A stretch of 61,315 nt of DNA, filler included. It is 6 parts of 6 records of this genome, joined end to end, with 100 filler letters (N's around TTAATTAATTAA, not from the genome) between each part and the next. Parts side by side here need not be neighbours in the genome. Positions count along the whole stretch, not along the records: positions 31,623 to 39,945 come from SRR7504441_888; 5 more parts are not named here. One strand, written 5' to 3'. Both the position numbers and the translations under genes were made by a program. Positions 10,401 to 52,036 of the stretch are shown here, in pieces (position 1 is the first letter of the stretch; the number at the start of each line of letters is the position of its first letter). Below the pieces are notes generated by a model. That model was not told the DNA's origin. It made no database searches and saw only the letters and a program-made list of their open reading frames with translations.

Positions 10401-12914
10401 GCATCACCATACCTGTTTGTAAAAAGAGCATCAAACCAACCGCCAGCGCTCTGACCTCTCAGGTAGAAGGCTCTGTCAGCGGCGTGTGCTGACTGGTGGT
10501 GGTGTGCAGGCGGCTGAAAATTTGCCTTTGGGCTGTCCACAGGAGCTCATGCTTGGCACAGAGATTGCTGCCTGCTGTCTGCTTCCTGGCCCTTCAAATC
10601 TGGTGACTTTGCTGACCAGTGGCAAGGTGCAGCGCTGGTGTGTCACAACTGGCAAAGAGCTCAACTCGCTGTACTATGCCAGCCTCGGACGCGGGCGCGA
10701 CATCCAGGCGGCGCGGCAGTGCGTGGCAGCTCTATTTGAGGGCGGCACGGTCCTGATCGCGTCAGCATTAACCCTCGAGCATCGGTGCACTCTCCGAATA
10801 CCCATATTGCCGCGGTGCATTGCTCTCACGAACGACGAGCAGCTGCTGTTGGGCACGGCAGAGGGCAGCGTGTGCAAGCTGGCATTGCGGCCTCTCGCCC
10901 GGCGGCGGATGTCTGCCCGCGTGCACCGGTCGCAGTCTCAACCGCTGCTCAGTGCGAGCGCGGGATCGCGAGGAGGTTCAAGACCTAGCGAGAAGGAACG
11001 GATTGACATCTCTCTACACGCACTCGAGCAGCAGACCGCCCACACAGGGCGAGTCAACTGGATCAGCTGCTCTAGTTCGGCAGCATTCGCAGCGAGTGCG
11101 TCCTCTGACAACACAGTAATCGTTCACTCGCTAGCTGAGCCTGGTAGGCATGTGCTGCTCCAGGGGCACACGGCCGCAGTGCTCTGCTGCTGCTGGCACC
11201 AGCACGATAAGCTGGTCTCTTCCTCCACCGATGGGACGGTCCGAATTTGGATGCGACAGAGCGCCTCCAGCTGGAAATTGGTGAGCATCTGGAATTCGGA
11301 GGGTAAAATGCAATGGGTGAGCAGCGCGGCTGGCCGGGTTACTCACAGGCTTTCAGGTGCGGTTCTGTCCAGACGGGAATAGAGTGATACACAGCGGGGC
11401 CGAGGGGGCGATTCTAGTCTCCCGGCAGGACGGCGACTTGCTGCAGTTTATCAAGGCGCATGGGCTGAGCAGCTCACGGCTGCCGAGCTTTGTGGTGGAC
11501 GACTCAGTGATTGTGGTCGGCCGACACTCCGTCAAGTGCTGGCAGGACGCAGTAGGCCGGCATGCCCATTCGGCGGGCGACGCACCCCACCAGGCGGTGA
11601 CCCGGCTAGTCCCGGCCGGGATAGCGGCACTGGCCAACTCGAGAGTCGTCTGCGCTTCCAAGCTTGGACTCGAAGCGTGGCACGTTTCATCGAGCGCCGG
11701 TGCTCAGACCCTCACACGCGATGCCGCGCTGATAGAAGCCACGGGCGGTAGCAAGCCGGTGACTGCGGTGGGCTCCTCTGAGGACGGCAGTCTGCTCGGG
11801 GTCGGGTATAGCGAGGAGCTGCGGCTGTGGCGGATGGACGGGCGGCAGATGGTAGAGTTTGGGTGCGTCAGGCGGCATAGAGATTCAATCGTGTGTGTGG
11901 CCTTCTCTCCCGACCGCTGCTTTGTGGCGACCAGCTCGAAGGACTCTAGCATCAAGCTGTATAGCCTCCCCGAGCTGTTAGAGACGGCCACTCTGGCCCA
12001 TGAAGCCCACCACTGTGTCGAGGTGCGGCAAGTAGCGTTCGATCAGGACTCAATCAGGTGTGCGCTCCCTAGATCGTTGCCAGCCCTGACTGGCTGGTGC
12101 TGTCAGATTAGCTTCGGTGACCACCGAGGGCCAGCTGACTGTATGGCTTGGGCGCCCGTTAGTCACCGAGCGGCTGGTCCGTTCAGACCACTCCGAGCAG
12201 CACCCAGCGAGCACCTGCACCGCCGCCAAGTTCGGGCCGAACAATCTGCTCGTCTCTTGCCACACCGACAGCACGTTGAGGGCTTGGCAAGCTGAGGACG
12301 GGGCCGACGGAGCTATTTGGGTCCAACTCCGCGAGTGGCGCGATGTGGGGATTGTCAAGTCGCTGGCTGTATTGCCGACCTGTGGCCCGCTACTTGTGGC
12401 GGCTCTGTCAGCCGAGACAGCCCTAGTGCTAGACCCGATGACGGGAAGAGAGGCGTGTCGGTTCAGTGCAACCGACACGTTGCGCGCCGTTTCCGCAGTC
12501 TGGCTGCCTGCAGGGATTCAGGAGGAGATGCATTTAATCCTGGGCGGCGTGCTTGTCTCGGACCTGGTCGTGCTTAGACTGATTGGCGCTAAGAGCGCCT
12601 CCGCCGTGTTTGCTCGAGCCCGTGGGCAGTACTCGGGTGCGGATGCAGAGCAAGCGCTTTCGAATGACCGGTGGCTCGGCGAGCGGCGGAGGCCTTGTCT
12701 GCGGGCATGGGAGCACTATGACGAGAGCAACGGCGGGGCGTGGCACGGGTACTCGAGCAGGGTGCAAGCGATCTTCCAAAGGAGCGAGCAGGCGGGGGTG
12801 GAGGTCTTGCAGTTCAGCTGCGCGAGCGGCGAGTACAAGGCTGATCTGCAACGGATGTTCCACGTTAACTTGCAGACTCGAATTAAGAGCAGGATGCGGC
12901 CGGTAATAAGTTGA
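7436..12914 (+). CDS. STAND/NLR-like protein with RWD-DUF4062-NACHT-WD40 repeats-WWE architecture (~1780 aa, 4 exons; NWD/TEP1-like core)
   Basis: RWD (EQEAAALGSILGDQF...GYPDAP); DUF4062 (LFVSSTFADFKAER...DLRW...CLQEVDRC...LLGQRYGW); Walker A GEHGSGKT; Walker B AIDSLDQL; WD repeats (GHTAAV...LVSSSTDGTVRIW; HRDSIVCVAFSPD...SSKDSSIKLY); WWE (WEHYDESNGGAWHGY...YKADLQRMFHVNLQT). Removing introns 10463-10509, 11317-11356 and 12058-12106 gives an open 5343-nt frame. Confidence 0.85.
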
Positions 12915-13043: not shown

Positions 13044-13143
13044 NNNNNNNNNNNNNNNNNNNNNNNNNNNNNNNNNNNNNNNNNNNNTTAATTAATTAAN
13101 NNNNNNNNNNNNNNNNNNNNNNNNNNNNNNNNNNNNNNNNNNN
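13044..13143. other. Artificial contig-joining linker
   Basis: N run + TTAATTAATTAA (stops in all six frames) + N run, 100 nt. Confidence 0.98.
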
Positions 13144-20056: not shown

Positions 20057-23000
20057 ATGGCAGGGAACTCACCAGGGGGTGGTGCAGACCCTCGGTTCCT
20101 GCAGGCCAAGCTGCGGCAGGCCGTCGCGTTGGCAGCCAAGCTCCGACGGGAGGGCCGGCTGTCTGAGGCGCGTGAAGTGGATGGGATGGTGGCCACATTG
20201 GAGCGCGGGGTCCAGCTCAGCAGCCAGGGCCCGTCGGCCAAACCCACCGCGCCCCCGCCCCCGCCTGGCCCCCCACCGAGCAAAGCCGAGCGCGTGCCAT
20301 GGGATCCGACCCAGGCCGAGCCAGAGCAGCTGCACCAGGTCTGTGCGGAGGTGATGGCCATCGCAGGTCGGAGCACCGGCTCTGTGACCAAGTTGGGGCT
20401 TGGGGCCTACCTGCCCGCCTCGCCATACGCTGAGCTGGGCCAGTGGCTGCTCCGCCGGTTCTTTGAGTACGACGCTGACCACGACGGGGCCCTCCAGCTT
20501 CCGGAGCTGCGCACCGCGGTCAGCGACTTCCGGCAGGCGGCGCTGGAGGCAGGGGAGCAGCACGAGCGGCCAGCCGCCAGGAGCAAGCCGCGCGCCCGGT
20601 CAGCCCGGGGTGCCCGGCCGAGCGGGTCGGCGGTCCAGCTCCGGAAGCAGCTGCAGGAAAGGGTCAGTCCGCAGATGCAGCGCCAGATCCGGCGACGGCT
20701 GGAGCACTACCCAGCAACGGCAGCGGAGCCCGAGCCAGCAGCTGCCGACAGCGGGGACACAGGCAGTGCCTCGCCGGAGCCGGAGTTCCGCACGCCGCAG
20801 GAGCGGCCGGGCAAGGGCATGGCTGTGTCCCGCGGGCTCGGGATGCTCGGGACGATATGCGGGCTGGCCGACCAAGCCGGGGACGGCTTCGATCAAATGC
20901 TAAATCAAGTCATGGCCGGTCAGCCGCCCGAGCCGCCCTCGGCGCACGAGGTGCAGCTGGCTGGACAGCTGTCGAGCTGGGGCACTCGGACGGGCTCGTC
21001 GCCGTCCGCTCTGGTGCCCAGTTGGGAGTCCAGCGACCGGCTCACGCCACGAGCCGAGTCACCTGAGCCGCCGTTCGTGACCCCGCGGGTGCCGGAGAGC
21101 CCGATCGTGGGCGAGCTGCTCGAGGCCGAGCAGAGCCCGGAGGCCGGGCCGAGCCCTGCGGAGAGTGAGACTGTGGAGTCCAAGCAGCTGGTGGCCAGTT
21201 CGGGGCTGTTCAGCCGAATCGAGGAGTTTGACTTCAACATACCGTGCAGCCAGCTGAGCGAGGCCGCGCTGGAAGGGCTGGTAGACCAGGTGAGGCAGTT
21301 TGTGGACAGCACCGGCGAGCAGCTGCACGTGCTGCCTTCGTCCAACCGGAGGGTGAGGAAGAAACTGCTGCACTGCCGGCAGCACGCGAGCAGGCAGCTG
21401 AGACTGCTCGAGGCAATCCGGGCGGGAGGCCAGATCCAGGTCGAGCTGCACGACGTGTTCGTGCAGCCTGAGCTCTGGCCCGGGGTGCTCGTGAACAAGG
21501 CGGCTACTGCGATCTCGGGCGGCTGGTTTGCCCAGGTGTCTGGCGGTCATGATTGGCTGGCTAACACTAGTGGTACAGGGGCAGGTATCCGGGGGTCTGA
21601 TATCCGACAAGACACGCCTCAAGAGCGTCAACTTGTTCCAAGTGGTGCAGCAGGCATCAGCTGGTGGCTGGCTGGCTGCTCACTGGCTGGCAACAGATCA
21701 TGCAGCAGCATCCTCAGTTTGCGATCGACCCAGTCCTGGCCAAGCACAAATACTCGCCGCCTCTGCTGCCTGGGCTACCTGAGGCCGACCAAGCCGCTCT
21801 GTTTGCCGACACTTCGGTCGGGTTTAGAGTCAAGTTGTTGCACAAGACACTCAACAAAATGAGGCGTGAAAGTGGTCTCGAATCCAAGCTGGGTTCGATG
21901 GAAAGCCTGCAGGCGATTGTGTTTGAGCTCATCAAAGACGGTGTCGATGTAGCCGCTCTGGGCGAGGATGGCAAGAGTCCCCTGCAACTTGCACTGGAGC
22001 TGCCTGTGCCGTACAGTGTTCATATTGGGCTGCAGCTGCTAAGGCACGGGGCGCTCAAGCCGAGTCAAAATATGCAGGTTGGCACGGAGCATCCCTTCAA
22101 CATGGCATTTTCCGCAATGGCACGTGCAGCAGAGCCCGACAAAGAGCTGCTCTCGCTGCTTGTGGTGGCGATGATTGCGAATGGAATGCCGCTGGAGGAT
22201 TCAGAGGGCCACGAGATCCCAATCCCTGCAGGAGCACCACTTGAGCTCGCATCCAAAGCTGGGCAACTTAAAGTGGTCGAAGCTGTGCTTGCTCACACTC
22301 AACGTGTTCCAGAGTTGGCGTTACACTCAGCAGTGTCAGAGCTGGCTCAGCTGTGCTCCGACAAGTATCTCGGGCTGTCTGGCGGAGGTCAAGCCGAAGC
22401 CATCAAGACGCGGATGGTGTTTCTGGATGAGCTGTGCTCAACACTGCTCGAAGCAGGCGCCAAGGTACCAGATGCATTTTGACCGTGCTAATGGTTTGTT
22501 GCAGGTGGACACTGTGGTTGGTGGTTGCACAGCTCTGGACCTGGCAGTGGATTGTGGCTACAAGGCTCTGGCAGTAGCGCTGCTGGCTCACGCAGCACAC
22601 CCCAATGGTGGCAATTTACACTCCCTCCCTCACTACATTGTACAAGAGATGGCCATCAACACTGATCAGAGCCGAGCAGTGTTTCTGGAGCAGATGCTGA
22701 TGCTGCTGGTTGCATACGGTGCTGAGGTCAACAAGCAGGATGAGGGTGGGCTCCTGATGGAGCAGCTGTTGCGCTGTGGCAACCGATCCGGAGTGGAGAT
22801 GGTTCTTGCAGCACCGCAGCTAGAGCTGGATATTCATCTCAGTGCTGCAGCTCAGTTTGTGGCTGAGAGTGATCCAATCACTGAGCTTGGCACTGACACA
22901 ATGTGCCTGTTGCTAAGGAAGGGTGCCGAGCTCAAGGACTGCGACGCCCTGCTTGCTTCTCTGATTACGCACCCTGCTTCCAGCGAGGAGCTTGTCATGT

Positions 23001-26000
23001 TGCTGGTGAAGCAGGCACGCGACCATAACCCAGAAACCATGGTGCGTCCGTGCTGCCCACCGCCTGCAGGGCTGACTTCATTGGCGCAGGTGGCAGCACT
23101 GGATCAGGTCATGGCTGAGCTGGCTCTCCCAGAGATTGCTGTCGCAGACAAGGCTCGGCTTGACCACATTGGGGCAATGATTGTAAATGCTGGAACACTT
23201 GTCAATCAGCGTGAGCTCCAGCTTCAAAGAGCTCTCGATGCAAGGGCGCACAAGCTGACGCACGCAATCATTAGCAAGCAGGGTGATCTTGATCTATGGG
23301 TTCCAACCATGACGCTCCTCACTGATGTCGTCCAGCGCGCTGAGGCTGCTCATGAGCAACATCACGAGGCAGTGGCGAGGCTAAATGAGATCGGCGCAGA
23401 CAGAGTCAAAGCTTCCAATCTCAAAGGTGGACGGGCAGACAGGGTTCTTGCTATTTTGAACCGCGAGGAGAAAGAGCTACAGAAGCAACTCCAGGAGATA
23501 CCTCAAGATGACGTGCTTCAGGAGGACACCGAGACAGCAATGGCTATGCTGAGAGGAATTCAAGAGAACAATATCCCTGTCCCTGCAGGCAGTGACTGCG
23601 ATGCAGAAGCTATCTCGTTGGCTCTTCGGCATGGTAGCCACGAGCTGTTGGAGCTTGTACTTGGGTCTGCGCGACCAGAGGCTAGGAACCAAGCCCTGGC
23701 ACACATTACGATGCAGATCTTGGACCAGAAGAACCCGCCTACTGTGGCAGCTCGTTCTTACCTGCTGGGAATTCTGCAGTCTTGCTTGCTGCACTGGGCT
23801 GATCCTACTGCACCTGCTGCCCAGCTTGGTAGTTCTGCACTGGCAGCTGCAGTTCAAGCTCGGGATGAGGACTGCCTTGGTGCTCTAGTAAGCAGCAGCG
23901 TGGGCGCCGCCCACCAGAACACTGTGATCGCACTATTTGAGCAGCTGGTTCAAGCGCGTGATGCGCATGGGGTGGCCAGTGGAGAATTTCAGATGCTGCA
24001 TAGAACCCTGCGCAAGGCGATCGATGGTACTTGGGTTAAGCAGACGATCCGCGATGAGAGTGGCTCTAAGAACATCAGCACAGCACTCGCAACCAAACTC
24101 TTGGCTCGCTCATGTGAAGACGGGCTCACTGAGCTTGCAGTGTTGCTTCTGGAACACGGTGCATCGCCATCTGGCGGCAGTAATTTATTGGACCAAATGC
24201 TGCTCAGCAGTCATCGTGATGACGATCCAAACGCACTAGAAGCAGCAGCAATAGTTGCAGAGCATCTTTTGAAGGCAGGTGCGGATCTAGACGCCGCAGA
24301 TGACCTTGGTCAGCGCCCTATCGAGGTGGCTCTTCAGATTGGGGCGTACAAGGTGGTGATGACTTTCCTGGAGTGGCCTTCCATTGATCTTTCGAAGGGT
24401 CACCTCATATACTCTCTAGTGCAAGATATGGACTCTGTCCCAACAGATACCGAAAAGTGGGAGCTGATGCAAGAAACTCTCGATAAATTGATAGAAGCAG
24501 GAGCTCCAGTGAACCAGCCTGGCCCTGAAGGGTATAACCCTGTCGATCTGGCCATCTGCCTGGGGGACGAGGACCTGGTTTGGCTGCTTGAGGTGGCTGG
24601 GGCCAACACACGGCTTGGCTTTCCTGTGCATGCTGCGCTGTCACAGCTCTCTTCACTCTCTTCAACACCAACTCCTGCAGCACCAGGTGGACTCCTATTC
24701 CCCCTCTGTTGAGTGCAACCTTAAGGCACATAACTGTAAATGCAAATGTTTAAAGCCATTGTCCGAATGTTGGGGCTTGTGACAGGTGAGAAGATTAAGA
24801 GCGCCTCGTTGGTTTTAGCCCTTGAGTTACTCGGCTGGGACCATGATGGATTTGTGGGCTCAGAAGAATTCCAAAGGTGTCTTGTGCAGGACTTGAGCCG
24901 AACACTTGATGTGCATCCTGCACGTGTTCATGTTGGTCAAGTGGATATACAGGAAGACTTTTTCGAAGTTCCATTCTCTGTAGCATCGGTAGAATCTTCT
25001 GGTGATGAGGTGGAGGAAGATGACAGACGAACACCCGAGGTGCTAAAGATGACCTTGATTGAGCTTCTGCTGAACCCCAAGGCAAAGGCCGCAAAAACTT
25101 TCTTCATGGGTGGAGTCACTAGTGGAGTACATATGGACCACACGATCAACTTGCTGCTTGGTCAACACCCTAGTTTCCTTGTGCGCAAAGTGCTCAAGCT
25201 GCTGCAGCACGGGGCTTCGGTTGGCAAGCCAGAGAGTGCAGAACACACGCCATTAATGCTGGCTGCAGTGTTAGGTCAAAGGGTGATTGCCAGAACAATT
25301 GTTACCAATGCGGGGAATCAACTTTCGATGGAGGATGCCACAGGAATGATGGAATTATGGCTGAAGAACCCTCTTGGCGATTCGCAGCTGGTGGACGAGC
25401 TGATTGGAGGGGTGATTGAGCAGGCAAAAGCCTCAATCGAGGAATTGCAGTCATTATTCACCCAGGCATGTAAAGCAGGCTTGCTCCACTCTTGCCAGCA
25501 GCTGCTTGCACGAGGAGTAGACCCGCAGGACGGGGATAATCTCAACACTGTCCTCATGATGCTGGGCAAATTTCCTCAGTTACCATACCCAGAGATTGCC
25601 AATGAGTTGCTGGAGCATGGTGTTGACCCGAATCGCGCTGGAGACAAAGGTCTCACTCCTCTGGAAGTGTGCCTGGGAGGTGGCAGCACCTGGCCTCACA
25701 GGAACACAAGTCAGATTGCGGCTGCAGGAACACTGGTCAAGCATGGCGCTGATTTCAACGATGAAACCTTTAGGCTAGCGCTTGCAAACTGGGATAATGC
25801 CACAGAAACTCATGTGGCTGCATCGCTCGAACATCTCATCACTGAAATGGTCGTACAAGGCGTCAACTATTTGATCTTCACAGAGGATGGACGCTCTGTA
25901 GCTGAGCTTGCTGTCGAGAAGCGAAGCTTGAACATCACGCGCGCTGTGTTGAAGGCTCAAATTAAGGTGTGGCAGAGTGCACAATCGGAGTCAGGCGCAT

Positions 26001-28822
26001 CGGGTGCCATGTTTGGATTCGGAAATCTCGATAGCGATCGCAGTGGGGCGGTGGAGCTTAGCGAACTGGTGGCACAGTTTGGTTCTACCCAAGCTCAGAC
26101 CTTACTCGCTACCCTGGACACAGACAAGAACAATCTAGTGTCCCAGAACGAATGGATGCGCATGATTACGAGACCATTCATGGAACTGTTGATTCAAGAG
26201 TGCCGTGGCAGTGTGCAATCTGGCTTCCAATTCGCCGGCCAGGGTGACAAATTAGATTTTGGAGCCGAACTTGCATCAGCACTGACAGAGTCGGGGGAGC
26301 CTGCGTTGCATCAATTGCTACGAGAGTGCGGATTGAGGGCGCATGAATACATCAAATCTCTACTCCAACACTCAATCACTCCTGGAGAGGAAGGTGCTCT
26401 CAACTGCACCATTGACATTCGAGTGTTGGATACACTTGCTCCTCGCCAGACGTTGCTGCAGACTGTCTCGAGCTTGGGACTGCGTGAGGTGGGCTAAAAG
26501 GATTGCGCCCTCGTTGAGCTGTTGCCTTGCAGGTGTGTGAGATGTTGCTCAATCTCGGCGCGTCTGCTGTCAAAGAAGACGATTTTGGCAATTCTGCTAT
26601 TAGTCTGGCTGTCGATGGAGGGCGCCATGATACATTCACACTACTTGCTGAAAAGCTGGAGGGGCATGCACTCCCAAGCGGCTTGATTCTCCGAGCTGCT
26701 ATGGCTGCAGATGCGAAAATGGTGCGGATGGTGCACTCTGCCAATGCATTGGTGGATGAGCGCGGAATTTTTGGCCGAACTGGGCTCCATGCATGTGCCC
26801 AGCCTGGTCGACTCGGTGGTGGACGCAATTTCTATCAAGTAATACCAGATTCCTTTAAAGTGAACTCACTGTGTGATCGACGCAGGTGTGTGACGAGGCA
26901 CAACTGGTGCAAGTTGCGCAGACTCTGCTCGATTTAGGGGCCACAGCAAACATGAAAGATGATGATAACGCGACTCCGTTGCTGCTTGCTCTACAATCTG
27001 GCTACATGCAGGTTTCAGCCTGTCGAATTTGTTGCATTACTTGTTATGTGCATGAGGCAAGATATGCTGAATTCATCTGTCGCAGGTTGCTCAATTGCTG
27101 ATCGAGTACGGAGCTGATCCCCTGATTGCCAATTCATCTGGTGTAAGCGCATTAACTCAAGCCATCACCTCGAACTGCCCGTCGGCCCTGATGGATCAAA
27201 TGCTCTTTCAATGTTCTAAGGCTGAGCTTGCAAGAGACGAACGAGCTATGGTGCTGGCAGTAGCTTGTGGAAACTCCTCTGTCCTTAAGCACCTGCTCAC
27301 AGTCAAGGGCTCTGGTGCTGGCCAGCAACTTTACTGTGGCTGGCCACTGGAATGGTGGGCTTGCTTCTACGGCCAAGTTGCTCTCGTCAGCGAGTTCATG
27401 GCGTCTCAAGGCGGCAACATCAGCTGGATTGATCCTACCAGTGGGCGAACTGTGCTACACTGGCTTGCATTGTGGCGTGCACCCAAACTGGCTTCGTCTC
27501 ATGCCAATTTGATTGCAAAGCTTGTTGCATCGAGTGCTGTGCCAGTTCATCAGGCAGATAGGTTTGGTAGGATTGCTTCGGAGCTAGCTTGTGATGCTGG
27601 AAACAGCGCAGCGTTGAGCGAGTTCCCAGCAGAGCAACAGCAAGCGCCATCTAAAAAACCCGGTGGCTGGTTCAGTGGTCCCCCAGTGGCTGCTTCGGCT
27701 GCTCCAGTGGCCACAGCATCGCCAACTCCAGACATGCTTCATATCGTGGCTTGTGAGGAGAGTGCAAGCTCTGAAGCAGCTGCTGAATATGCCGAGCAGA
27801 AGAGCTGCCTGATGTCAGACCCGGAGTTCCCGTCTGTGATTGACTCGCTTGCGCACTGCGATGTGCCTGCCGATCCACTTCTAGCCCGTGTGCAATGGTT
27901 AAGAGCTAGTCAGCTAGGAAACTGCTTGTTCAGTGGACAAGGCACAAATGGGGCGCTAGAGGTGGGTTTGACAGGGAAGTGCTGGTTCTGGTGTGCAGTG
28001 GCACAAATGGATCAAATGGTCATTCGTGGCATGTTTCAGAGCACAGCTGTCAATGCGCGAGGGTATTACAAGATTAAGTGCACGTGGGCTGGGGAAGAAC
28101 ATCTGGTAATAATTGACGATAGGATCCCATGCATTGATCAGCAACCAGCTTTTGGGCGGGTGGGTTCGCCTGATGAGATTTGGTCATTGCTTTTGTGCAA
28201 AGCTTATGCTAAGCTTGCTGGGTCTTACCAGCAGCTTTTCGAGCTGAGCACAGAGCTCATAAGTGAGTGGTCGCAGTCGCTTATACCAGCTCTGCTGAAA
28301 ACTGTTCACTTGGAAGATACTGTACAGGATGGTGGGGTGATGCAGCATAGGCTAATGGAGCAATCGCTGGCGCCTTTGCTTGGTCTGTCTCAGATGCTGG
28401 AAGCTAGATCACCCATGCTGGCTGACTCTAAGGGCAAGGTAGAGGCAGTGAAGTTAGCTAAGGAACTTGCGGGGGTGGTGATGGCAGCAGATGCGGGGAC
28501 ACGCCCATCCAGTCAGCCTCAGTTGTCGGCGCAGCTGCCACAGTTTGAGCTGAACTGCTCAGCCGCATGTGATTTAGCAGTTGTTGTGAACGGAAACGCT
28601 CCGCACGACCTCTACCTTACAGTCACAGGTGTGGATGGCAGCAGTGCAGGTAGGTTGGAGCTTGAAGACCTCCAGTCGGAGTCAGGGCAGAGTTTGGCGC
28701 TCACCACTTCTAAGAATCCATACACAGTTATTGCTCACACAGAGAGGCAATTGAGCGTGATGCCTGAGTTCTATCTTGACTTCCAAGGTTCCAAACAGAT
28801 CACGGTCGCCATGAAGCCATAG
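20057..28822 (+). CDS. Very large multi-exon EF-hand/ankyrin-repeat protein with C-terminal partial calpain (CysPc) domain
   Basis: EF-hands DADHDGALQLPE, DSDRSGAVELSE and DTDKNNLVSQNE; many ankyrin motifs (GRTGLHACA, ATPLLLALQSGY, GRTVLHWLA); calpain-like DPEFP...WLR...GKCWFW...IIDDRIPC...EIWSLLLCKAYAKLAGSY; ORF pieces join through about 7 introns. Confidence 0.75.
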
Positions 28823-31522: not shown

Positions 31523-31622
31523 NNNNNNNNNNNNNNNNNNNNNNNNNNNNNNNNNNNNNNNNNNNNTTAATTAATTAANNNNNNNNNNNNNNNNNNNNNN
31601 NNNNNNNNNNNNNNNNNNNNNN
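31523..31622. other. Artificial contig-joining linker
   Basis: N-TTAATTAATTAA-N, 100 nt. Confidence 0.98.
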
Positions 31623-31865
31623 GGGGGGGGGGACAGGCTGAGCCGACCGAGGCCGAGATGGAAGCCGAGATCGAGGCCACCGACGGGATGCCCTCGACTA
31701 TCTAATGTACAGTGATACTTGATTTATAAAACGCCTTAAGAATAAAACCTCCATATGTGAGTGTGTGCGAGTTTCTCACATAGAAATTACCGAATCACGG
31801 GTCTCTCAAACATCAGAGCATATTGTGATCAATGCATATGCCCCAATCCATGAAACGCATTAAGC

Positions 31866-33110
31866 TCAGAACGGCGCGAGCTCGCCCTCCGCAGTGAACA
31901 AGTCCAGGCCCTCCTCGAGCACAGTCAGCCCAGGTTTATCACGGAGCAACTCCAGAGCAGCGGGGCTCACCCAGCACTCGGCCACCTGCAGAGTGTTCCG
32001 GATTCGCACCGCAACCACCGCATCCATCCCGCTCCCGGCCGCCCGGACCGCAGTGCGCCATGTGGCCGCGTCCGAGCCGCAAACCACTGGCAGCTTGCCG
32101 CGCTCGAGGTTGTTTGAGGTTATGATGTTGGTGGCCGTCGCCTCGAAATCAACCTGATCGAAGAATGCCTTGGGCACGCAGTCGGCCAGCCCCATCCCGC
32201 ACGCATTGCCGTGCGATTCGGGCGTGATGCTGTGGCAGGAAATGATGCGCACGTTAGGTTCCACAGGCTCCGGTGTCCCATGAGTGTACATCCTGCCGAT
32301 TACGTTAGTGTCCATCCCTGTCCCGGATATGTTTTTCCCAATCTCGTCCACAAGCAGCACGTCCATGTCCATCAACGGCAGCCGCGGCAGGCTGGCCCGG
32401 GCCATATCCAGCAGCTCCTTCTCGATGGTCGGAATCTCGCTCTCCCTCACCGCTCTGACCATTTGAGTCTCGTCGTACGCGTTCTCCACAACAGCCACAC
32501 CGGCCAGGATCTTGGCATGCTTGAGCTTCTGGAGCGCCACCCTGGGCATCCAGTCCCGCAGACCCTCCACCCCATCCCGCTTGTTCACCCGGTCGTGCAC
32601 CGCCTCGGCCCCGGCCCTGTTCCCCAGCCCGATCGTGATCATCTTCATCAGTCCAGATTCGTGCTCCCCGTGGAAATCCGTGTGCGGCTTGACTCGGTTG
32701 AGCACGATGATCCCGTCCGCCTGGCTCGCCTGCGCGTCCAGGTGCACCGCCATCGGAAGGTCACCTCGCGGCAGCTCCACCACCTCCATCGACGACTTGA
32801 TCTCACAGCCGACGGTCTCCTCGGTCACCCCGTACCCCGCGAGCAGCTCAAGCTGGCCCGCCGCGGTCCCCCCGCCGTGCGAACCCATCGCCGGCACCAG
32901 GAACGGCACACCACCCGCCTGCTGCACAAAGCGCACCGTCGCCGCCAGCAGGGCCGTCAGGTTGGCCAGCCCGCGAGACCCGGCGGTGATTGCAACGGTC
33001 TTGCCGGCGAGGTCGAGCTCCAACCGCCCGAGCTGCGCCGCCACCGCCCCCGGGACGTCCGGCTCCACCACCCGGTCGAACGTCTGCGCGACCCGCGCCC
33101 AGCCCGCCAT
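31866..33110 (-). CDS. Bacterial-type lactate racemase (LarA)-superfamily / DUF362-DUF2088 isomerase-like protein, 414 aa, intronless
   Basis: AITAGSRGLAN, PAMGSHGGGTAAGQ, NRVKPHTDF, ESGLMKMITIGLG, GKNISGTGMDTNVIGR and SHGNACGMGLAD, motifs I recognise from prokaryotic LarA-domain proteins. Confidence 0.8.
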   Translation of the reverse strand: MAGWARVAQTFDRVVEPDVPGAVAAQLGRLELDLAGKTVAITAGSRGLANLTALLAATVRFVQQAGGVPFLVPAMGSHGGGTAAGQLELLAGYGVTEETVGCEIKSSMEVVELPRGDLPMAVHLDAQASQADGIIVLNRVKPHTDFHGEHESGLMKMITIGLGNRAGAEAVHDRVNKRDGVEGLRDWMPRVALQKLKHAKILAGVAVVENAYDETQMVRAVRESEIPTIEKELLDMARASLPRLPLMDMDVLLVDEIGKNISGTGMDTNVIGRMYTHGTPEPVEPNVRIISCHSITPESHGNACGMGLADCVPKAFFDQVDFEATATNIITSNNLERGKLPVVCGSDAATWRTAVRAAGSGMDAVVAVRIRNTLQVAECWVSPAALELLRDKPGLTVLEEGLDLFTAEGELAPF

Positions 33111-33704
33111 GAGTAACGGAATAGCCCAGTGCCTCCACTGGGCTAGTGCATGGTGCCAGAGGCAGAGTCATAGGGCATGCCGTTCATGGCCTTGTTGCAT
33201 GTGGGCTGTACCAAAGATGCCAGCAATTGCCATGACGCCATCTGCATTTTGGGCTTATCTCAATTACCTCGGACGGCATGGAAACTCAACTCTTGAGACG
33301 TAAACGTAACCCTGCACCGCAAGAGCGAGCCGCCGCGAGCACCAAGCGGTGCGCATTGACCCGATGCAAGGGAAGAAGGTACTCACCAAGGCCAACCTAT
33401 GCAAGGAGATGTACGCCTTCCACTTCCTGTACTTGAAGTCAACAGAGTGCATGGTTGGGTTTCAGGGTATCAGGGTTTCAGAGAGCCTCGCGATCGACGG
33501 CAAACGACGAGATCGCCACAACAACACCGGGCTGGGTCTACGCTTGGTGTGGAGTAGTCACACCGAGGGCGAGGCATCTCCGCGCGCCGTCAAGCTTAGA
33601 GGAGGGCGCGAGGCATCCCAGGCCTGGCAAACCTACCGGCTGAGCTCCGGCGTCCCGTGCGCGTACCTGCAGAGTCCCGGCGCCCCAGGCCAGAGATCGG
33701 CGAA

Positions 33705-34199
33705 ATGCTGAGCCGTGTTAGGCAGTCTGCTGCCTCGCTCGGGCTGGCGCCGCGCGTGCTGGCGCGCTCGCTGGCCTTTGGGCTGGCGTTCGGCTGCTGC
33801 CCAGTGTACCTGCCCTGGCTGCCCACCGTGCTTCTGGCGGCCATGGCCCGGGGGCTCGGCCTGAGCGTGCCTGCGGCGCTGGTCGGGCTGCAGTTTGCCA
33901 CCCCGATCTTCCTGGTGCTGCTGGTGCCCTTCATCCGGGCCGGCGAGTACGTGAGCGGATCCCCAGCCATCGCGGTGGCTGAGCTGCTGTCGGCCATGCG
34001 GGAGGCTCCAGTCGACACCCTGCGACAGTTCAGCGGCCGACTGGGCTGCGCCGCGCTAGTGTGGGCGGCAGCGTTCCCAGTGATGGCGGCCGTGTTCTAT
34101 GCGTTGCTGCTTCCGGTTTGCCACCTGCTGCTTCCGACACAGGATGACAGTAGATCCGGCGCGGCCAGAGCCGAGCACAAGAAGCTGATCAACAAGTGA
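33705..34199 (+). CDS. DUF2062-family small membrane protein, 164 aa, intronless
   Basis: PRVLARSLAFGLAFGCCP...PTVLL...LSVPAALVGLQFATP...PFIRAGE pattern with hydrophobic helices. Confidence 0.75.
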   Translation: MLSRVRQSAASLGLAPRVLARSLAFGLAFGCCPVYLPWLPTVLLAAMARGLGLSVPAALVGLQFATPIFLVLLVPFIRAGEYVSGSPAIAVAELLSAMREAPVDTLRQFSGRLGCAALVWAAAFPVMAAVFYALLLPVCHLLLPTQDDSRSGAARAEHKKLINK

Positions 34200-34268
34200 C
34201 GGCTAGGCATGCTCAATAGTCAATAGTTCATATTTATTCAAACCCTACATTCTTTTACTACAAGTCGC

Positions 34269-36050
34269 CTAGGAACTTGTCGCACGCCGCACCAACTCGA
34301 CCGCGTCATCGGCACAACCCCACGCCAGAATCACGCCCACATCGCCGTGGCCATAGTTGTGAACAACTGGCGGCCCGCTCGCGAGCTCCTCGAGCTCCAC
34401 TCTCGCGCCCGCCACTCTGAAAGGCCGGAACCCTACCCTTTCACTGACTAGGCTGCACTCACGCAACGCTGGGCACCACGCAGCTACTTGCCGGAGGAGC
34501 CTTTTGCTGAGCTCAGGATCAGCTAGCTCCCGGCTGTCGTCCGGATACTTGCAGCCACCGACAATGCAGGTCCCGTTGCCCTGTGGGATGGCATGTATCG
34601 GGTGCTGCTTGTCCCCCGTCATCAGGCTAAAGAAGCAGGTCTGCTCCGGCGCGTGCACCAACACCGTCTGGCCGCGCACGGGAATCATAGTCTCGTCCCC
34701 GACTAGCTCGCGGCAGCCCAGCCCAGCACAGTTCACAATTGCCGCCACCGGCTGTCGCGATGGCACGAGCGCGGCTTCCGCGAGGGAGCTCACCGCTCGA
34801 GTGATGAGCGAAGCGCCCCCCTGCTGCAGCCGCTGTCGCAGGCAGGCCAGGTACGCGTGCATGTCAGTGCACAGTGTCCGGAACGCCACGCCACCCGCCA
34901 GATCGGCGCCAACATCGCGGACCCCTGCTGGAACATCGACCGCATCCCACGCGCCATCGCCTGCCCGCAACTCACGGAAGCTCGGCACGAACTGCGCGAG
35001 CGAGGTCTCGCCGCTTACAATCGGTTCCATCCCGTGGGGCGCCCCCTCGCTTGTGTAGAGTCTGACGCCCTCCCGCAGCTGGGTGAAGCCCGCCCCGCCC
35101 TCCGCGTCTTCCAGCATCACTGCGAAACTGCGGTGCGCCCAGCGCTTATAGAGCGGGCCCGTAAAGCCTGCCGCCTCCGAGCCGTACCCTCGGCCATAAG
35201 TCGGATCCGGGATAAACCAGCTCGCAGCGCTATGCGAACAAGTGTGATCAAAACTCTCAGCCAGGACTGTGACACTTGCCCCTGCCTCCTGCAGCCGTAA
35301 CGCCGTGCTGAGCCCGATGATCCCGCCGCCGACCACCACTATCTCGCCGGCACCGGCCAAAGAGGGAGGCGCCGGTGGCCTCGGCACAATGTGGTTTGCG
35401 AGCTCAACCAATGCATCAATCGGATCCAGCAGCACAGCACCGGACGGGCACCACCCCGGCGGCAGCAGCTGCGGAAAGTCTGTGCAGCCCAGCACCAGCG
35501 CCTCCGCGCCGCGAGCCACCAGACCCTCCAGGATCTCCACCAGTCGCGGCTGCGGCTGCGCCACGATAATGCCCTTGCAGTGCTCAATCATGCGCTGCAG
35601 CTCGTCCTGTTCCGACGGCACGGGCACAACCAGCTCCCAGCGGTCGCTAGCGTACAGCCCGGATCTGGTGCTCATGCTTGTCGCGACCAGCCCGACCTTG
35701 CTGAAGCTCTCCAGCTTGAGCCGCGTGGCGCCTACCATGTCTAGCATTGTCAGCCCGGTTTGCGCTTCGAAGCGCGGCCGCAGAAGGTGCATAGTGTTGC
35801 ACGCGATCATCGCCGTTGTGCAGCCGAGCTGCCGGGCCTGTCGCCCGAGCCGCACAAGCTCCGCCAGGTTTTGGTCCGCCGCCTCGGGTGAGGACGAGTA
35901 AACCGCCAGTCCTGGCGTCGAGAGCTGCACCAGCGGGCGGCGGGGATAGCGCACGCTGAAGCGTGTATAGACGTCAATTGCCACGCGCCCCCAGTTGCCG
36001 CTCAGGTGGCACAGAGCCGCCTCCTCGGCCGAGTCTACCCCCGCGGGCAT
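34269..36050 (-). CDS. Fusion of Asp/Glu amino-acid racemase and FAD-dependent D-amino-acid oxidase, 593 aa, intronless
   Basis: Racemase catalytic-Cys motifs IACNTMH and LGCTDFP; Pro-rich linker PRPPAPP; DAO motifs VVVGGGIIG, IVNCAGLG, PVRGQ, GFRP and HNYGHGDVGVILAWGCA, all in one open frame. Confidence 0.88.
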   Translation of the reverse strand: MPAGVDSAEEAALCHLSGNWGRVAIDVYTRFSVRYPRRPLVQLSTPGLAVYSSSPEAADQNLAELVRLGRQARQLGCTTAMIACNTMHLLRPRFEAQTGLTMLDMVGATRLKLESFSKVGLVATSMSTRSGLYASDRWELVVPVPSEQDELQRMIEHCKGIIVAQPQPRLVEILEGLVARGAEALVLGCTDFPQLLPPGWCPSGAVLLDPIDALVELANHIVPRPPAPPSLAGAGEIVVVGGGIIGLSTALRLQEAGASVTVLAESFDHTCSHSAASWFIPDPTYGRGYGSEAAGFTGPLYKRWAHRSFAVMLEDAEGGAGFTQLREGVRLYTSEGAPHGMEPIVSGETSLAQFVPSFRELRAGDGAWDAVDVPAGVRDVGADLAGGVAFRTLCTDMHAYLACLRQRLQQGGASLITRAVSSLAEAALVPSRQPVAAIVNCAGLGCRELVGDETMIPVRGQTVLVHAPEQTCFFSLMTGDKQHPIHAIPQGNGTCIVGGCKYPDDSRELADPELSKRLLRQVAAWCPALRECSLVSERVGFRPFRVAGARVELEELASGPPVVHNYGHGDVGVILAWGCADDAVELVRRATSS

Positions 36051-36186
36051 TGTCGATTTGGCAGATTTATCCGTTAGACTTCTCCATGTGCGGAGTCCAA
36101 GGCGCTTGGAGAGGTGCTCCTGGCTGGTGCAAAGGGCGCCCGATGGGCTGCTGGCCGCTTCTGGCCACCTACAGACCCATAATAAG

Positions 36187-39100
36187 ATGAGGCGGAGCGG
36201 TGGGCTCAGCGACGAGTCCGCCCCCAGCACCCCGGGCGGTGCGCTGGCGACCCCAGGCTCGCGCAGGTCTGGCGGCGGCCCGCGCCGACCCAGGCTTAAG
36301 AGCGGGCTGCGCGAGGGCAGCGGGTCCCCGGGTGAGTCGCCGTCGATCTCACCGTCGGTGTCACCAGCGGATGGACCGGCGGGCTGGGCGGGTCGGGTGC
36401 TGGAGGACGACACCACTCCGCGCTCTCGCAAGATAGCGGCCGCAGGGCAGGAGTGGGAGGTTAGCGACATGGCCGAGAGCGACATCTTGTCCTTTCTGGA
36501 TGAGGTGCACATGGAGCACGAGCTGGCCACCGCCGTGGGCGCTGGGCAGGCCATGGAGCAGATATCGGTGCGCCCCCACCCCTGGCAGTTGCCAGCCCGA
36601 GGCAGGAACTGGTGCCATCGCCCAGCCGAGTGGGCGGGCTGGGCAAGCCCGCATCCGATCAGCGCCGGCGCGTCCAGCAGCTGGAGTCAGAAGCTCGTCG
36701 GATGCGGGCATCCCACAACGAGGTGCGCCGCCCGAGCCCTGTTGGGGACCCTGGGCCAGGCCACATCGGAATTCCGGCACGGACAGCGAAAGAGCGGGCT
36801 GCGCGAGATGAAGGCGGTGCTGCAGCGCTGGTTGGCCTTCGCGCAAGTCCGGGTGCTGGCTCAGTGGCGGCTGAACATGGTTGTTTGATTGTGAGAAGTG
36901 CTAAGCAATGGGCTGCAGGTGCAAGTGAGGGTTACCACACTGCCCGACCCGGAATTGAGCCGGTCGCTGGCAATGCAGCGCGAGCTGCTCGCCCGGATAC
37001 GTGACTGCGGGCTGCAGATAATGCTGCTGGTGATGGCGCGTTGGCAGGGGCACCAGCTCCGCCAGGCTCTGCTCTCTTGGAGGTCCAAGCAGAGCTGGGC
37101 AAAGCTAACCGCAGAGGCGATCCGACTGCCCGGTCAGACCGCGGTTCAGCAGTTGCGCGCCGCCAAGCACGACTGGCTCGATTCGCCGGGGGTCTCTCCA
37201 AGCACTCCGCTTGCAATAAGCCAGTCAATTGCCTGGAGGCACCAGGCTTGCGCTGCGTTAGCAAAGGTACTCACTGCGGGTCGGGCTGTATCCCAGCTCG
37301 GCAGCGCTCTGGGTCGGGTCCAACCGGCAGCTACTCGCCGTTGGCTGGCCGCAGCGAGTCGGCACATGGCTGCAGACCGGCTGCGTGCCTCGGACCAGGC
37401 ACGGATGGCGGCCTCAGATCAGGCCAACACAAGCCAGACCACCATACAGGAGCTTCAAGAGGCCAACAAGAAGCTTCAAGCTCGGTTGTGCGAGCATCGG
37501 TCCGATGCTGGGCGGCGGGCGCTCGTCCAGCTGATGAGTGGCTGGGCCGCTGGGCGGCTTCATCGGGCTGTAGCAAGTTGGCTGGCAGGCAGCCGACAAC
37601 CAGAGCGGCTAGAGGCGGAGCTGTCAGAGCAAGCCAAGAGGCTGGCGGCTGTGGAGTCCGAGCTAGGCTGCGCGGCCGAGTTGCTTGAGGATGCGCACAG
37701 CCGACAACAGGCCGAGCAGGAGCTGCTAAGCGCACTGGCCCGCCAAGCACTCTGGCAGGACGGACTGCAGGCGCGGCATGAGCAGATGGATCAACTGGCG
37801 CTGTCGGAGAGAGTGGCGCTGGCGGCGCTGCTTCAGACGCAGGAGACAATGCACTGGCTTCAGACAGGGATTGAACTGCTGCCGGCGCCAGAAGATTGCG
37901 GTTCATTGTCCGACAGTCTGACCCAGCTCACTGCGGTAGCGGAGCGGCTCAGCCAGAGCGCAGCCGAGTGCGTTTCCGGGCCCAAAGCACAGGCTACACA
38001 GCGACTGATCGAGCTGGTGGAGGCGGCTTCAGAGGTGCTGCGAGTGGGGGGGCTAGACTGATTTTTGGGGGGGCAGACTGTGGACACAGAGCCTGTGAAA
38101 GGATTTGTAGCAGAGCTGCCGGGGCTAGAGAAGAGCCTAGCCAGGCTGCTCACCCGCCTGGCAGAGTGGTCTAGCCGGCTGGCGCATAGTGCGATCGATT
38201 CGGGTGACCAGACTCCTAAAGAGCTGGTGCTATGCCAACTGGTGCAAGCGGCCCGGAGAGTGCACAGCCAGCTGCCAGAACTCAAGCTAACCGAGCATGG
38301 AGCAGAGCTAAGCTCAAAAAAGCAGTTGGCCACTGAGCTGCCTGAACCAGCGGACGAAGCCGCAGCGGTGATAGCGCTGACAAACGAGCTTGGTTTGGCT
38401 GAACGCAATGCCGAGCTGTTGGCTGAGGCAGCAGGCCATCTGGCTACTCGAAATGCAGAGCTGAGGGATCAGCTATCAGTTGTCCAGGCTGCTGCTGAGG
38501 AGGAGGCAGCCAGGAAGGCTGCTGTGGAGGAGGAGGCAGCAAGGAAGGCTGCTGTGGACGAGGCTGCCAGGAAGGCTCATTTCAAAGATATGCTTGTGTT
38601 TGCGACTGATGAAGCAGCAGAGCTGGCTGCAGCAGACGCAGAGGCGTCAGCCGAGGCAGAAGTAGCCAAGCGCACAAGAGAAATAGCGGTGGCGACTGAT
38701 GAGGCCTCTGACACAAGCAGGTCTAGGGAGCAGTGCGAGTCAGGCAATCGATTGAAAGAGAGCGAGCGGTTATTGCAGCTTGAGGGCAGGCTAAGGGACA
38801 GTGAGGTCGAGCTAGAGCAGGCCAGCCAACAGCTAGAGGGGGCGAGGCAGCGTCTAGAGGAGGCTTCCGTGGCATGTGAGGCTGAGATGGCAGCGGTGCG
38901 ATCTCAGCATCAGGCTAAGGTGGCAACGCTGGAGGGAGCGCTACAGAAGGTTGAGGGTCAGCTGGCTAAGGGAGCAGCAAAACAGGAGCAAGTGGCTCAG
39001 GAGCATTGCAAGGCCATCTCTGACCTGAAGGCAACTTTGGAAGCTGCAAAGCGGGAGGCAGCGGATGCCAAAGCTGAGTTGAAGGATCTCGGGGCAGGGC

Positions 39101-39945
39101 ATGTGTCTGACATTGAAGCAGCCTCAACTAAGGTGGCAAAGCTGGAGGGAATGCTGGCAGACCTGCGCTTAAAGGATGCTGCCAAGGACGCTCAACTGGC
39201 AGCCTATAGAGAGGGTGCTTCAGGGAACTCAGCAGCTGTTGATGATCTGGAGAGGAAGGTATCAGGACTGGAGCGACAGTTGGCTGATAGCCAAGCAGAG
39301 GAAGCTCGGTGCAAGGCAGAGTTGGTACAGACAAGGCAGGAAGGGACTGAGACGGTGCAGGGAACTCAGAGGGATGCTGTGGATCGTCCAGCAGAGGGCG
39401 TGGTTGCTCTGGACCAGGAGGTGGTGGTGCTGCAGGCGAGGCTGGATAAGTGCCAACGTCATGGGACGAGCCTGGAGCAGGAGCACCGAGAGCAAATCGA
39501 CATCCTCAAGCGTCAACATTCCACCACCATTGGTGAGCTGCACGGCGAAGTTGCCCAGTTGCAAGCAGACAAGAAGCTGCTACAGGAAGAAATCAGTGCA
39601 CTGGGCCAGCAGTCGGCGTGCGAATTGGGGCAGTTGCGGGTCGAGCTGGCGGAGCGACTTGAGCAGAGCGAAAAGGAGATGGCTGATCACGCCACAGAGA
39701 TGGACGCTGTGCTCACTAGACTGGCAGAGCAGCAGTCTGCCAGCCAGCAAGAGGCTGGTCGATTTGCAGAGCAAGTTGCACAGCTCAGATCGGAGCTCGC
39801 GGCCCAGCTCGAGCCCGCAGCCCAAAGCCCAGAACCTAAACCACGTAGTGTCAAGCTGGTGCGGCTTGGGTCGCCGCAGCGGGCGCATCCACGACGGCAC
39901 TCACTTCCGAGTCTAGACTGGGCGGGCGAGCCGGATGGGCCGGTG
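36187..39945 (+). CDS. Large multi-exon coiled-coil protein with Trp-spaced helical repeats, 3' partial
   Basis: GT-AG introns (e.g. ~36568-36606); repeats like VLQRWLAFAQVRVLAQWR and VMARWQGHQLRQALLSWR; AAEEEAARK tandem; long heptads; runs into the linker. Confidence 0.65.
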
Positions 39946-40045
39946 NNNNNNNNNNNNNNNNNNNNNNNNNNNNNNNNNNNNNNNNNNNNTTAATTAATTA
40001 ANNNNNNNNNNNNNNNNNNNNNNNNNNNNNNNNNNNNNNNNNNNN
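39946..40045. other. Artificial contig-joining linker
   Basis: N-TTAATTAATTAA-N, 100 nt. Confidence 0.98.
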
Positions 40046-46710: not shown

Positions 46711-46810
46711 NNNNNNNNNNNNNNNNNNNNNNNNNNNNNNNNNNNNNNNNNNNNTTAATTAATTAANNNNNNNNNNNNNNNNNNNNNNNNNNNNNNNNNN
46801 NNNNNNNNNN
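46711..46810. other. Artificial contig-joining linker
   Basis: N-TTAATTAATTAA-N, 100 nt. Confidence 0.98.
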
Positions 46811-51936: not shown

Positions 51937-52036
51937 NNNNNNNNNNNNNNNNNNNNNNNNNNNNNNNNNNNNNNNNNNNNTTAATTAATTAANNNNNNNN
52001 NNNNNNNNNNNNNNNNNNNNNNNNNNNNNNNNNNNN
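51937..52036. other. Artificial contig-joining linker
   Basis: N-TTAATTAATTAA-N, 100 nt. Confidence 0.98.

Follow-up and report, generated by a model that had tools for sequence, protein, structure and literature searches.

Much is known about racemases and about D-amino-acid oxidases as separate enzymes, and the two have been combined deliberately by chemists. In bacteria, the dadAX operon encodes the catabolic alanine racemase DadX and the D-amino-acid dehydrogenase DadA as separate genes, through which an L-amino acid is turned into its D-form and then yields ammonium and the 2-oxo acid. DadA is a flavin adenine dinucleotide (FAD)-dependent enzyme of the Pfam family DAO that passes its electrons to the respiratory chain and not to O2, and DadX depends on pyridoxal 5'-phosphate (PLP) and has a fold unrelated to that of the Asp/Glu racemases. 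A review of biocatalysis is said to describe engineered cascades of a racemase and a D-amino-acid oxidase, in which amino acids are converted via the D-form to 2-oxo acids or are deracemised. Here we describe a stretch of 61,315 nucleotides (hereafter, the window) in which one gene on the minus strand, at 34269..36050, encodes a racemase-family domain and a DAO-family domain in a single predicted polypeptide of 593 residues (hereafter, the fusion protein).

The dadAX system resembles the function proposed below for the fusion protein in that an L-amino acid is catabolised by first being racemised, after which an FAD-dependent enzyme oxidises the D-form. The engineered cascades contain the same pair of activities, but they are man-made mixtures or constructs, whereas the fusion is a natural gene. 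According to the available part of one report, CuyB of Bilophila wadsworthia converts L-cysteate to D-cysteate for the D-specific sulfo-lyase CuyA (PMC11193023). As in our proposal, a racemase of the same superfamily there makes the D-form solely for a D-specific and irreversible deaminating enzyme; unlike the fusion protein, CuyB and CuyA are two proteins, and CuyA is a PLP-dependent lyase and not a flavin oxidase.

Open reading frame and domain content

A single open minus-strand frame extended from the ATG at 36050 to the TAG at 34271-34269 and consisted of 593 codons and the stop codon. The list of open reading frames (ORFs) and the translation both agreed in this respect with an original prediction for this DNA, which had described one intronless frame of 593 residues. 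Pfam was run on the longer, 761-residue open frame that includes an upstream extension, and the coordinates were converted to the 593-residue numbering. Two families exceeded their cut-offs in this one frame, namely Asp_Glu_race (PF01177; E 7.2e-17, 62.3 bits with a cut-off of 31, residues 44-218, profile positions 35-211 of 211) and DAO (PF01266; E 6.8e-38, 131.5 bits with a cut-off of 27.9, residues 237-585, with positions 2-352 of the 353 in the profile covered without a break). Because both matches were above the cut-offs, a chance ORF in GC-rich DNA was excluded. The G+C fractions at the first, second, and third codon positions (GC1, GC2, and GC3) were 0.70, 0.51, and 0.76, respectively, which is a coding pattern, and the racemase and oxidase halves were alike in this regard. 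The predicted absence of introns gained indirect support from the continuous homology over both domains and from the lack of an internal stop.

The same frame remained open for a further 168 codons upstream (36051..36554, minus strand). GC2 was 0.67 in this extension, as against 0.48-0.52 in the domains; Pfam gave no match to it, and it showed no similarity to P0003, the relative described in the next section. In the homologues, the HLSGNW motif sits 5-16 residues after the start, and the same was true for the ATG at 36050. The extension is probably untranslated, although it may be an N-terminal or targeting extension of the protein.

Junction of the two domains

The domains were connected by a proline-rich linker, IVPRPPAPPSLAGA, corresponding to residues 221-234 (35349..35390, minus strand). 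Five of its 14 residues were Pro according to the translation, which bears out the Pro-rich linker described earlier. Neither a stop nor a Met occurred between the domains, the in-frame Met residues being at positions 154 and 312 with none in between; since no Met is located near the FAD-binding GxGxxG motif (residues 241-246), the oxidase could not be made alone, and this motif would exist in the fused chain only.

Furthermore, an independent relative of 435 residues (P0003), which was 64% identical over 313 aligned residues, contained the racemase, the linker, and the oxidase in one frame. Its linker was 17 residues longer, as judged by the BLASTP gaps, and differed in sequence save for VPRP, with the frame kept. 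Selection for an open frame predicts that the frame is kept despite a longer and different linker, and the junction is therefore regarded as real. The similarity to P0003 ended after residue 334 of that protein, which continued as low-complexity sequence; we infer that a gene caller of the prokaryotic style ran across an intron or a frameshift at this break. The contig joins nearest to the fusion ORF were 2.6 kb and 3.9 kb away. The fusion is probably genuine and, as read from the DNA, encoded by one single-exon gene.

Racemase half

Residues 13-220 (35391..36014, minus strand) were assigned to a PLP-independent racemase domain that belongs to the Asp/Glu racemase superfamily, by means of PF01177, profile matches to the PDB, and an Atlas structure model. 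Both catalytic-Cys motifs that had been noticed previously were found. The first cysteine, Cys84 (ACNT; 35799..35801, minus strand), was invariant in 7/7 subfamily members and matched the cysteine in the CNT motif of Pyrococcus horikoshii aspartate racemase (1jfl), where entry 2dx7 has Ala. The second, Cys189 (GCTD; 35484..35486, minus strand), was aligned with GCTE of 1jfl and of the Salmonella protein 3s7z; its column contained Cys in five of the six subfamily rows reaching it, the remaining row, P0161, having Ala (GAAD), and P0124 was truncated before this position. The two reference proteins thus align with the fusion protein at both cysteine motifs; they differ from it in that they are not fused to an oxidase and have a GGMGP-type loop, where the fusion protein has SGNWGR at residues 17-22 (35985..36002, minus strand), aligned with GGMGPAAT of 3s7z. 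S17, G18, N19, W20, and R22 of this SGNWxR loop were invariant in all seven subfamily members, as were Asp26 and other residues besides Cys84.

As a single query, the N-terminal half matched the aspartate racemases 3ojc (8.7e-10) and 1jfl (3.2e-9) in the PDB. When a profile of the seven-member subfamily was used, the matches to 3s7z (4.4e-24) and 1jfl (1.2e-23) began at the N-terminal loop and reached the C-terminus; profile positions 5-217 were aligned with 3s7z, a putative aspartate racemase, and HLSGNWxRV was placed opposite GILGGMGPAAT. In addition, the Atlas model of P0123 (predicted template modelling score, 0.85) gave a template modelling score of 0.87 to an aspartate-racemase cluster over residues 1-217. 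The first 34 positions of the PF01177 profile were unmatched by Pfam. Because the subfamily profile spans 3s7z, the P0123 model superposes, and the homologue starts match the ATG, the racemase domain is regarded as whole, with no upstream exon lacking.

The match to the NCBIfam aspartate racemase model TIGR00035 (61.5 bits) was below its cut-off of 93.1, and the loop is not of the GGMGP type. The best NCBIfam match of this half, ahead of the aspartate racemase model, was the cysteate racemase CuyB (NF052483); the score of 73.4 bits was far below the equivalog cut-off of 190, and the racemase half is accordingly not a CuyB. Three relatives, P0123, P0129, and P0130, scored 65-86 bits against the same model. 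The earlier assignment to the Asp/Glu racemase family thus holds at the level of the superfamily, where PF01177 was above its cut-off, and does not extend to the named subfamilies, whose cut-offs were missed. We regard the racemase half as a divergent subfamily, here called SGNWxR.

Within this subfamily, the fusion protein grouped with P0003, P0123, and P0124 in a tight clade, at a support of 97/97 and with identities of 65-70%. The stand-alone racemases P0128, P0129, P0130, and P0161 consisted of 224-273 residues and shared 34-47% identity with the four proteins of that clade. P0123 had 220 residues and was 67% identical to the fusion protein in the alignment, and its end coincided with the position at which the linker starts. 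P0128, P0130, and P0161 carried N-terminal extensions of 25-60 residues, which could be organelle-targeting peptides. When bacterial and archaeal genomes were scanned with the racemase profile, only three loci were found, at 24-25% identity, with no oxidase match near any of them. A bacterial operon as the precursor of the fusion was considered and left as unsupported, none of these three loci having an oxidase match nearby.

Oxidase half

The FAD-dependent oxidase domain, of the type of D-amino-acid oxidase (DAAO) and D-aspartate oxidase (DDO), was assigned to residues 235-593 (34272..35348, minus strand) on the basis of PF01266, PDB matches, and a tree. Residues 233-591 matched human DDO (6rkf; 2.9e-30) and the DAAOs 2du8, 1c0i, and 7ct4, the E-values ranging from 2.9e-30 to 3.6e-21. 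The score against the NCBIfam model of the glycine oxidase ThiO (TIGR02352; 84.1 bits) was below the equivalog cut-off of 250.8. The residues were compared in a MAFFT alignment of 54 rows, and the counts given below refer to the 53 rows other than the fusion protein.

The dinucleotide-binding GxGxxG motif (VGGGIIG; G241-G246, 35313..35330, minus strand) was well conserved, G241, G243, and G246 each being Gly in 52/53 rows with a gap in the remaining one. Arg542 (GFRPFR; 34425..34427, minus strand), which faces GLRPYR of 6rkf, was Arg in all 53 rows. It corresponds to Arg283 of DAAO and Arg278 of DDO, which the available part of a structural report describes as making an essential contact at two points with the α-carboxylate of the substrate (PMC8260693). 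The FAD motif, the carboxylate-binding Arg, and HNYGHG are thus as in 6rkf and the three DAAOs. With PF01266 covered almost end to end and these motifs in place, the complete DAO-family flavoenzyme of the original prediction was recovered. DAAO and DDO are stand-alone enzymes, and the fusion protein differs from them in the racemase in front, in inserts within the oxidase domain that are specific to its clade, in the C-terminal -TSS, and in two residues of the active site.

The first of these residues is His486 (IHAIP; 34593..34595, minus strand), which the multiple alignment places at the position of Tyr228 of human DAAO and Tyr223 of human DDO; this Tyr binds the substrate carboxylate according to the same partial source (PMC8260693). 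The column contained Tyr in 46/53 rows, including all four other clade members, and His in two, in agreement with the earlier remark that Tyr is usual here. A pairwise phmmer alignment was shifted by one residue and put Ala487, not His486, opposite Tyr223 of 6rkf, and no Tyr was found under either alignment. Among the five members of the clade described below, the change from Tyr to His was private to the gene in the window.

The second is Asp570 (34341..34343, minus strand), which occupies the site beside the flavin where DAAO has Gly313 and DDO has Ser308, and which faces the Ser of HHYGHGS in 6rkf. The residue following HNYGHG is described in that source as Gly in DAAO and Ser308 in DDO, with its backbone in contact with the flavin (PMC8260693). 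HNYGHG followed by Asp was present in 5/5 clade members, whereas the 44 other rows bearing the motif had Gly in 42, Ser in one, Thr in one, and Asp in none; in the MAFFT column as such, Gly was found in 44/53 rows and Asp in 5/53, four of them clade members. Asp at the Gly313 position, as had been noted previously, was therefore present; since it is common to the whole clade including stand-alone enzymes, it is a trait of the clade and not an oddity tied to the fusion.

This five-member clade (support of 100 in the Shimodaira-Hasegawa-like approximate likelihood ratio test, SH-aLRT) consisted of the fusion protein, P0004, P0127, P0125, and P0005. P0004 has 362 residues and is regarded as stand-alone because its gene lies on a contig of 1490 bases; P0125 has 370 residues and ends in -SKL, P0127 is a fragment, and P0005 is a protein of Symbiodinium natans named DDO. 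The clade grouped weakly (80-87) with unnamed proteins, and it was placed with a group containing a protein from a green alga and DDO-like proteins from animals, not with actinobacterial enzymes, at a support of only 52, the deep branches of the tree being without support.

The acid specificity of human DDO is attributed to His54, Arg216, and Arg237 in the available part of the report (PMC8260693). In the alignment to 6rkf, these residues faced Asp282, Ser475, and Lys501 of the fusion protein. An assignment of the oxidase as DDO, and with it a pair of aspartate racemase and DDO, was rejected on this comparison, the acid-binding pocket not being conserved. The substrate is probably neither Asp nor Glu, and since the positive pocket of DDO is not kept, a basic, neutral, or unusual substrate seems likelier than Asp, Glu, or cysteate.

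Cellular location

A type 1 peroxisomal targeting signal (PTS1) has as its consensus an SKL-like C-terminal tripeptide. The translation of the fusion protein ended in -TSS, with no such tripeptide at the C-terminus, as had been predicted, whereas its DDO-like relatives P0034 and P0100 (-AKL) and P0125 and P0138 (-SKL) had PTS1-like ends. No signal peptide or hydrophobic stretch was recognisable at the N-terminus of the fusion protein. Because both kinds of signal were missing, these features suggest a cytosolic protein.

Occurrence of the architecture

A word-indexed search with the whole protein gave 220 matches, and among the 120 listed, one, P0003, contained both families. P0003 was also the only match when the racemase part alone was searched against proteins of 326-1038 residues. 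A HMMER scan of 1.84 billion representatives gave 5157 matches, the best 150 of which comprised six with the racemase only, 144 with the oxidase only, and none with both. The subfamily profile retrieved nothing from proteins of 479-2000 residues, which is weak evidence by the account of the search tool; the protein of the window itself was missed too. In a tblastn search against 72,556 plasmids, none of the 174 matching records spanned at least 80% of the query, and none of the Atlas clusters shown nearest to P0123 and P0125 (30 by features and 30 by structure for each) contained both families, those nearest to P0125 being DDO and DAAO. No natural racemase-DAO fusion was found in the literature, including that on D-amino-acid enzymes in algae, judging by titles and the openings of abstracts; to this extent, the original statement that no characterised protein of this architecture was known to its author is supported.

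The three long proteins among the best 150 combined the oxidase with a CorA-like domain (P0005), a methyltransferase (P0190), or a GNAT domain (P0207). A cyanobacterial Atlas cluster reached from P0125, with 89 members of approximately 800 residues, combined DAO with ATP-grasp_3 and represents a further case in which a DAAO-like enzyme is joined to a domain that handles amino acids.

Stand-alone relatives exist for both halves, racemases of 224-273 residues and oxidases of 362-370 residues (P0004 and P0125), and the natural fusion is conserved in at least two organisms, those of the window protein and P0003. The architecture had been open to the objection that it might prove common; with P0003 as the only other case in these searches, the data support a rare architecture and do not support one unique to two organisms.

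Genomic surroundings

The window consists of six joined contigs, so that gene neighbourhood is meaningful within each piece only, and the fusion gene lies in the piece at 31623-39945. Five identical spacers (44 N, TTAATTAATTAA, 44 N) separated the pieces at 13044-13143, 31523-31622, 39946-40045, 46711-46810, and 51937-52036; the TTAATTAATTAA spacers form a six-frame stop linker. Runs of poly-G or poly-C opened the pieces at 31623 and 52037 and look like sequencing artefacts.

Directly downstream of the fusion gene on the same strand, an ORF at 31866-33110 (minus strand) encoded a 414-residue putative isomerase of the LarA superfamily, which uses a nickel-pincer cofactor (NCBIfam NF052515 "group 22", 461.6 bits with a cut-off of 400); it had no PDB match. 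In the available part of a survey, the eukaryotic LarA homologues known to its authors all belonged to the gluconate 2-epimerase branch (PMC11770544). Bacterial homologues of the isomerase on plasmids of Rubrobacter, Sulfitobacter, and Marinovum were 41-46% identical and lay among genes for sugar acids and cofactor synthesis, with LarC in one neighbourhood and, by product names, two putative LarB/LarE homologues in another. Three neighbourhoods were inspected among the 117 matching plasmid records, and none of the three had a racemase or DAO gene beside the isomerase homologue. A functional cluster of the isomerase with the fusion gene was rejected as unsupported on this count. LarB, LarC, and LarE were not recognised among the ORFs of the window scanned with Pfam or NCBIfam.

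A convergent ORF at 33657-34199 (plus strand) matched DUF2062 in Pfam (30.7 bits with a cut-off of 27.4) and was coding-like with a GC3 of 0.81; this family is described as conserved in bacteria. Its stop was 70 bp from that of the fusion gene, and the AT-rich spacer between them contained AATAAA. On the other side, a coiled-coil frame at 36898-39945 (plus strand) was divided into two ORFs in the same frame by one TGA at 38059-38061, which is flanked by G-runs, and ran off the end of the piece. The two ORFs probably represent a single gene broken by a sequencing error, a pseudogene, or a gene with a read-through stop. On other pieces, long ORFs at 7436-10492 and 22175-28822 (both plus strand) encoded AAA_16/NACHT-like, ankyrin, EF-hand, and calpain domains; GC3 of the long ORFs there was 0.52-0.79, and the codon composition differed markedly between pieces. 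These ORFs prove no linkage to the fusion gene.

Scans of the window for Rfam families and tRNAs found nothing, and no Shine-Dalgarno-like sequence preceded the ATG at 36050. Because of the latter, the AT-rich flanks with AATAAA, the intron-like break in P0003, and Symbiodinium natans as the source of the nearest named relative, we favour a eukaryotic origin of the piece at 31623-39945.

Proposed function and alternatives

On the basis of the observed architecture, the conserved junction, and the catalytic residues kept in both halves (Cys84, Cys189, GxGxxG, Arg542, and HNYGHG), we consider it somewhat probable that the fusion protein is a bifunctional enzyme in which the racemase feeds an irreversible oxidase, with net oxidation of an L-amino acid via its D-form. 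In the predicted reaction, the SGNWxR domain would interconvert the L- and D-forms of one or a few amino acids without a cofactor, by a two-base proton exchange at Cα with Cys84 and Cys189. The FAD-dependent oxidase, joined to it by the linker of approximately 14 residues, would then irreversibly oxidise the D-form; the resulting imino acid would yield the 2-oxo acid and ammonium, with H2O2 as the further product. Because the oxidation would be irreversible and adjacent to the racemase, both enantiomers would be consumed; the protein would behave as a net L-amino-acid oxidase or deaminase acting through a D-intermediate, and little free D-amino acid would be released.

A more specific form of this proposal is speculative and, in our estimation, rather unlikely. 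The protein would be a self-contained stereo-inverting oxidase and would give a microbial eukaryote a new natural route for oxidising an L-amino acid, in which the D-intermediate passes straight from the active site of the racemase to that of the flavoenzyme; the substrate would be basic, neutral, or non-proteinogenic, as set by the SGNWxR loop together with Asp282 and Asp570, and the enzyme would represent a hitherto unrecognised kind of "L-amino-acid oxidase" with which protists scavenge nitrogen or turn over metabolites.

Several points weigh against net L-amino-acid oxidation. Unless the substrate is a special one, the presence of a fused racemase would mean the waste of an L-amino acid with which aminotransferases could deal. 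Production of H2O2 outside peroxisomes would be unusual for the DAAO/DDO class, some relatives in which carry -SKL or -AKL. His486 and Asp570 could each lower or alter the oxidase activity. On the racemase side, no named curated family was reached and the N-terminal loop is rebuilt, so that the term amino-acid racemase extrapolates from the superfamily. In addition, P0123 may be a stand-alone form within the tight racemase clade, and the fusion would then be dispensable.

The alternative that survives best, though improbable, is utilisation of D-amino acids taken up from outside, for instance out of dissolved organic matter or the debris of bacterial walls, part of which would be racemised to the usable L-form and the rest oxidised to ammonium and a 2-oxo acid, the fusion merely co-regulating the two activities. 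Such salvage suits each activity as established for the families, and the stand-alone relatives of both halves imply that each half is useful alone. However, an irreversible oxidase would draw back the L-product and destroy it, so that fusion works against salvage, and nothing in the piece at 31623-39945 points to uptake or wall degradation. Nor did any evidence emerge for the link to the cell walls of bacterial prey that had been suggested earlier.

It is slightly less probable again that one half is a pseudoenzyme, either the oxidase with its Tyr-to-His and Gly-to-Asp changes or the racemase with its rebuilt loop, serving in binding, regulation, or oligomerisation. The His in a column dominated by Tyr and the SGNWxR loop in place of GGMGP would fit such decay, and P0161, which lacks the second catalytic Cys, indicates that inactive or one-base forms arise in the family. 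Against this, both cysteines, GxGxxG, Arg542, and HNYGHG are all kept in the fusion protein, the coding pattern of GC3 is even across both halves, and Asp570, being present throughout the clade including the stand-alone enzymes, is no sign of decay.

A different chemistry is a small possibility, below the pseudoenzyme in our ranking. The N-terminal domain would in that case be another enzyme of the superfamily, such as an epimerase of a modified amino acid, an enzyme acting on a sulfonate (e.g., cysteate) or a hydantoin, an isomerase, or a decarboxylase, or it would act on a non-proteinogenic substrate, and the DAO domain would oxidise its product in osmolyte or secondary metabolism and not in general amino-acid catabolism. 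In its favour, CuyB ranked first among the NCBIfam models for the racemase half and for three relatives, ahead of the aspartate racemase model, and the loop, in which Asn, Trp, and Arg do not vary, suggests a pocket of a different kind. The CuyB scores were nevertheless far under the cut-off, and the closest structures and clusters were ordinary DAAO and DDO. A sulfonate or carboxylate side chain is further disfavoured by the loss of two of the three positive pocket residues of DDO and the gain of Asp282 and Asp570.

Finally, an artefact, in which two adjacent genes, a mis-assembly, or an unrecognised intron had produced a read-through frame, would be helped by the 64% GC content, which favours long open frames such as the 168 upstream codons without a coding look, and by the short draft contigs with homopolymer ends that make up the window, but is very improbable given the lack of a stop or Met between the domains, the same in-frame junction in P0003 despite its longer linker, and the distance of the ORF from the contig joins.

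Significance

We therefore return to the fusion protein as a candidate bifunctional enzyme for L-amino-acid oxidation. As far as our searches reach, a natural single polypeptide with a racemase and a D-amino-acid oxidase domain was previously undescribed. The logic of a racemase followed by a D-specific enzyme is already established for separate enzymes; what is new is that the two are covalently joined, and which subfamilies they come from. Should both halves be active, the gene would provide a compact, genetically encoded route for oxidising an L-amino acid via its mirror image. It would also serve as a "Rosetta stone" link between the unannotated SGNWxR racemases and the HNYGHGD oxidase clade, with the prediction that the stand-alone members of both share a substrate. 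Under the same condition, the fusion protein would be a candidate for amino-acid-dependent release of ammonium and H2O2 in microbial eukaryotes.

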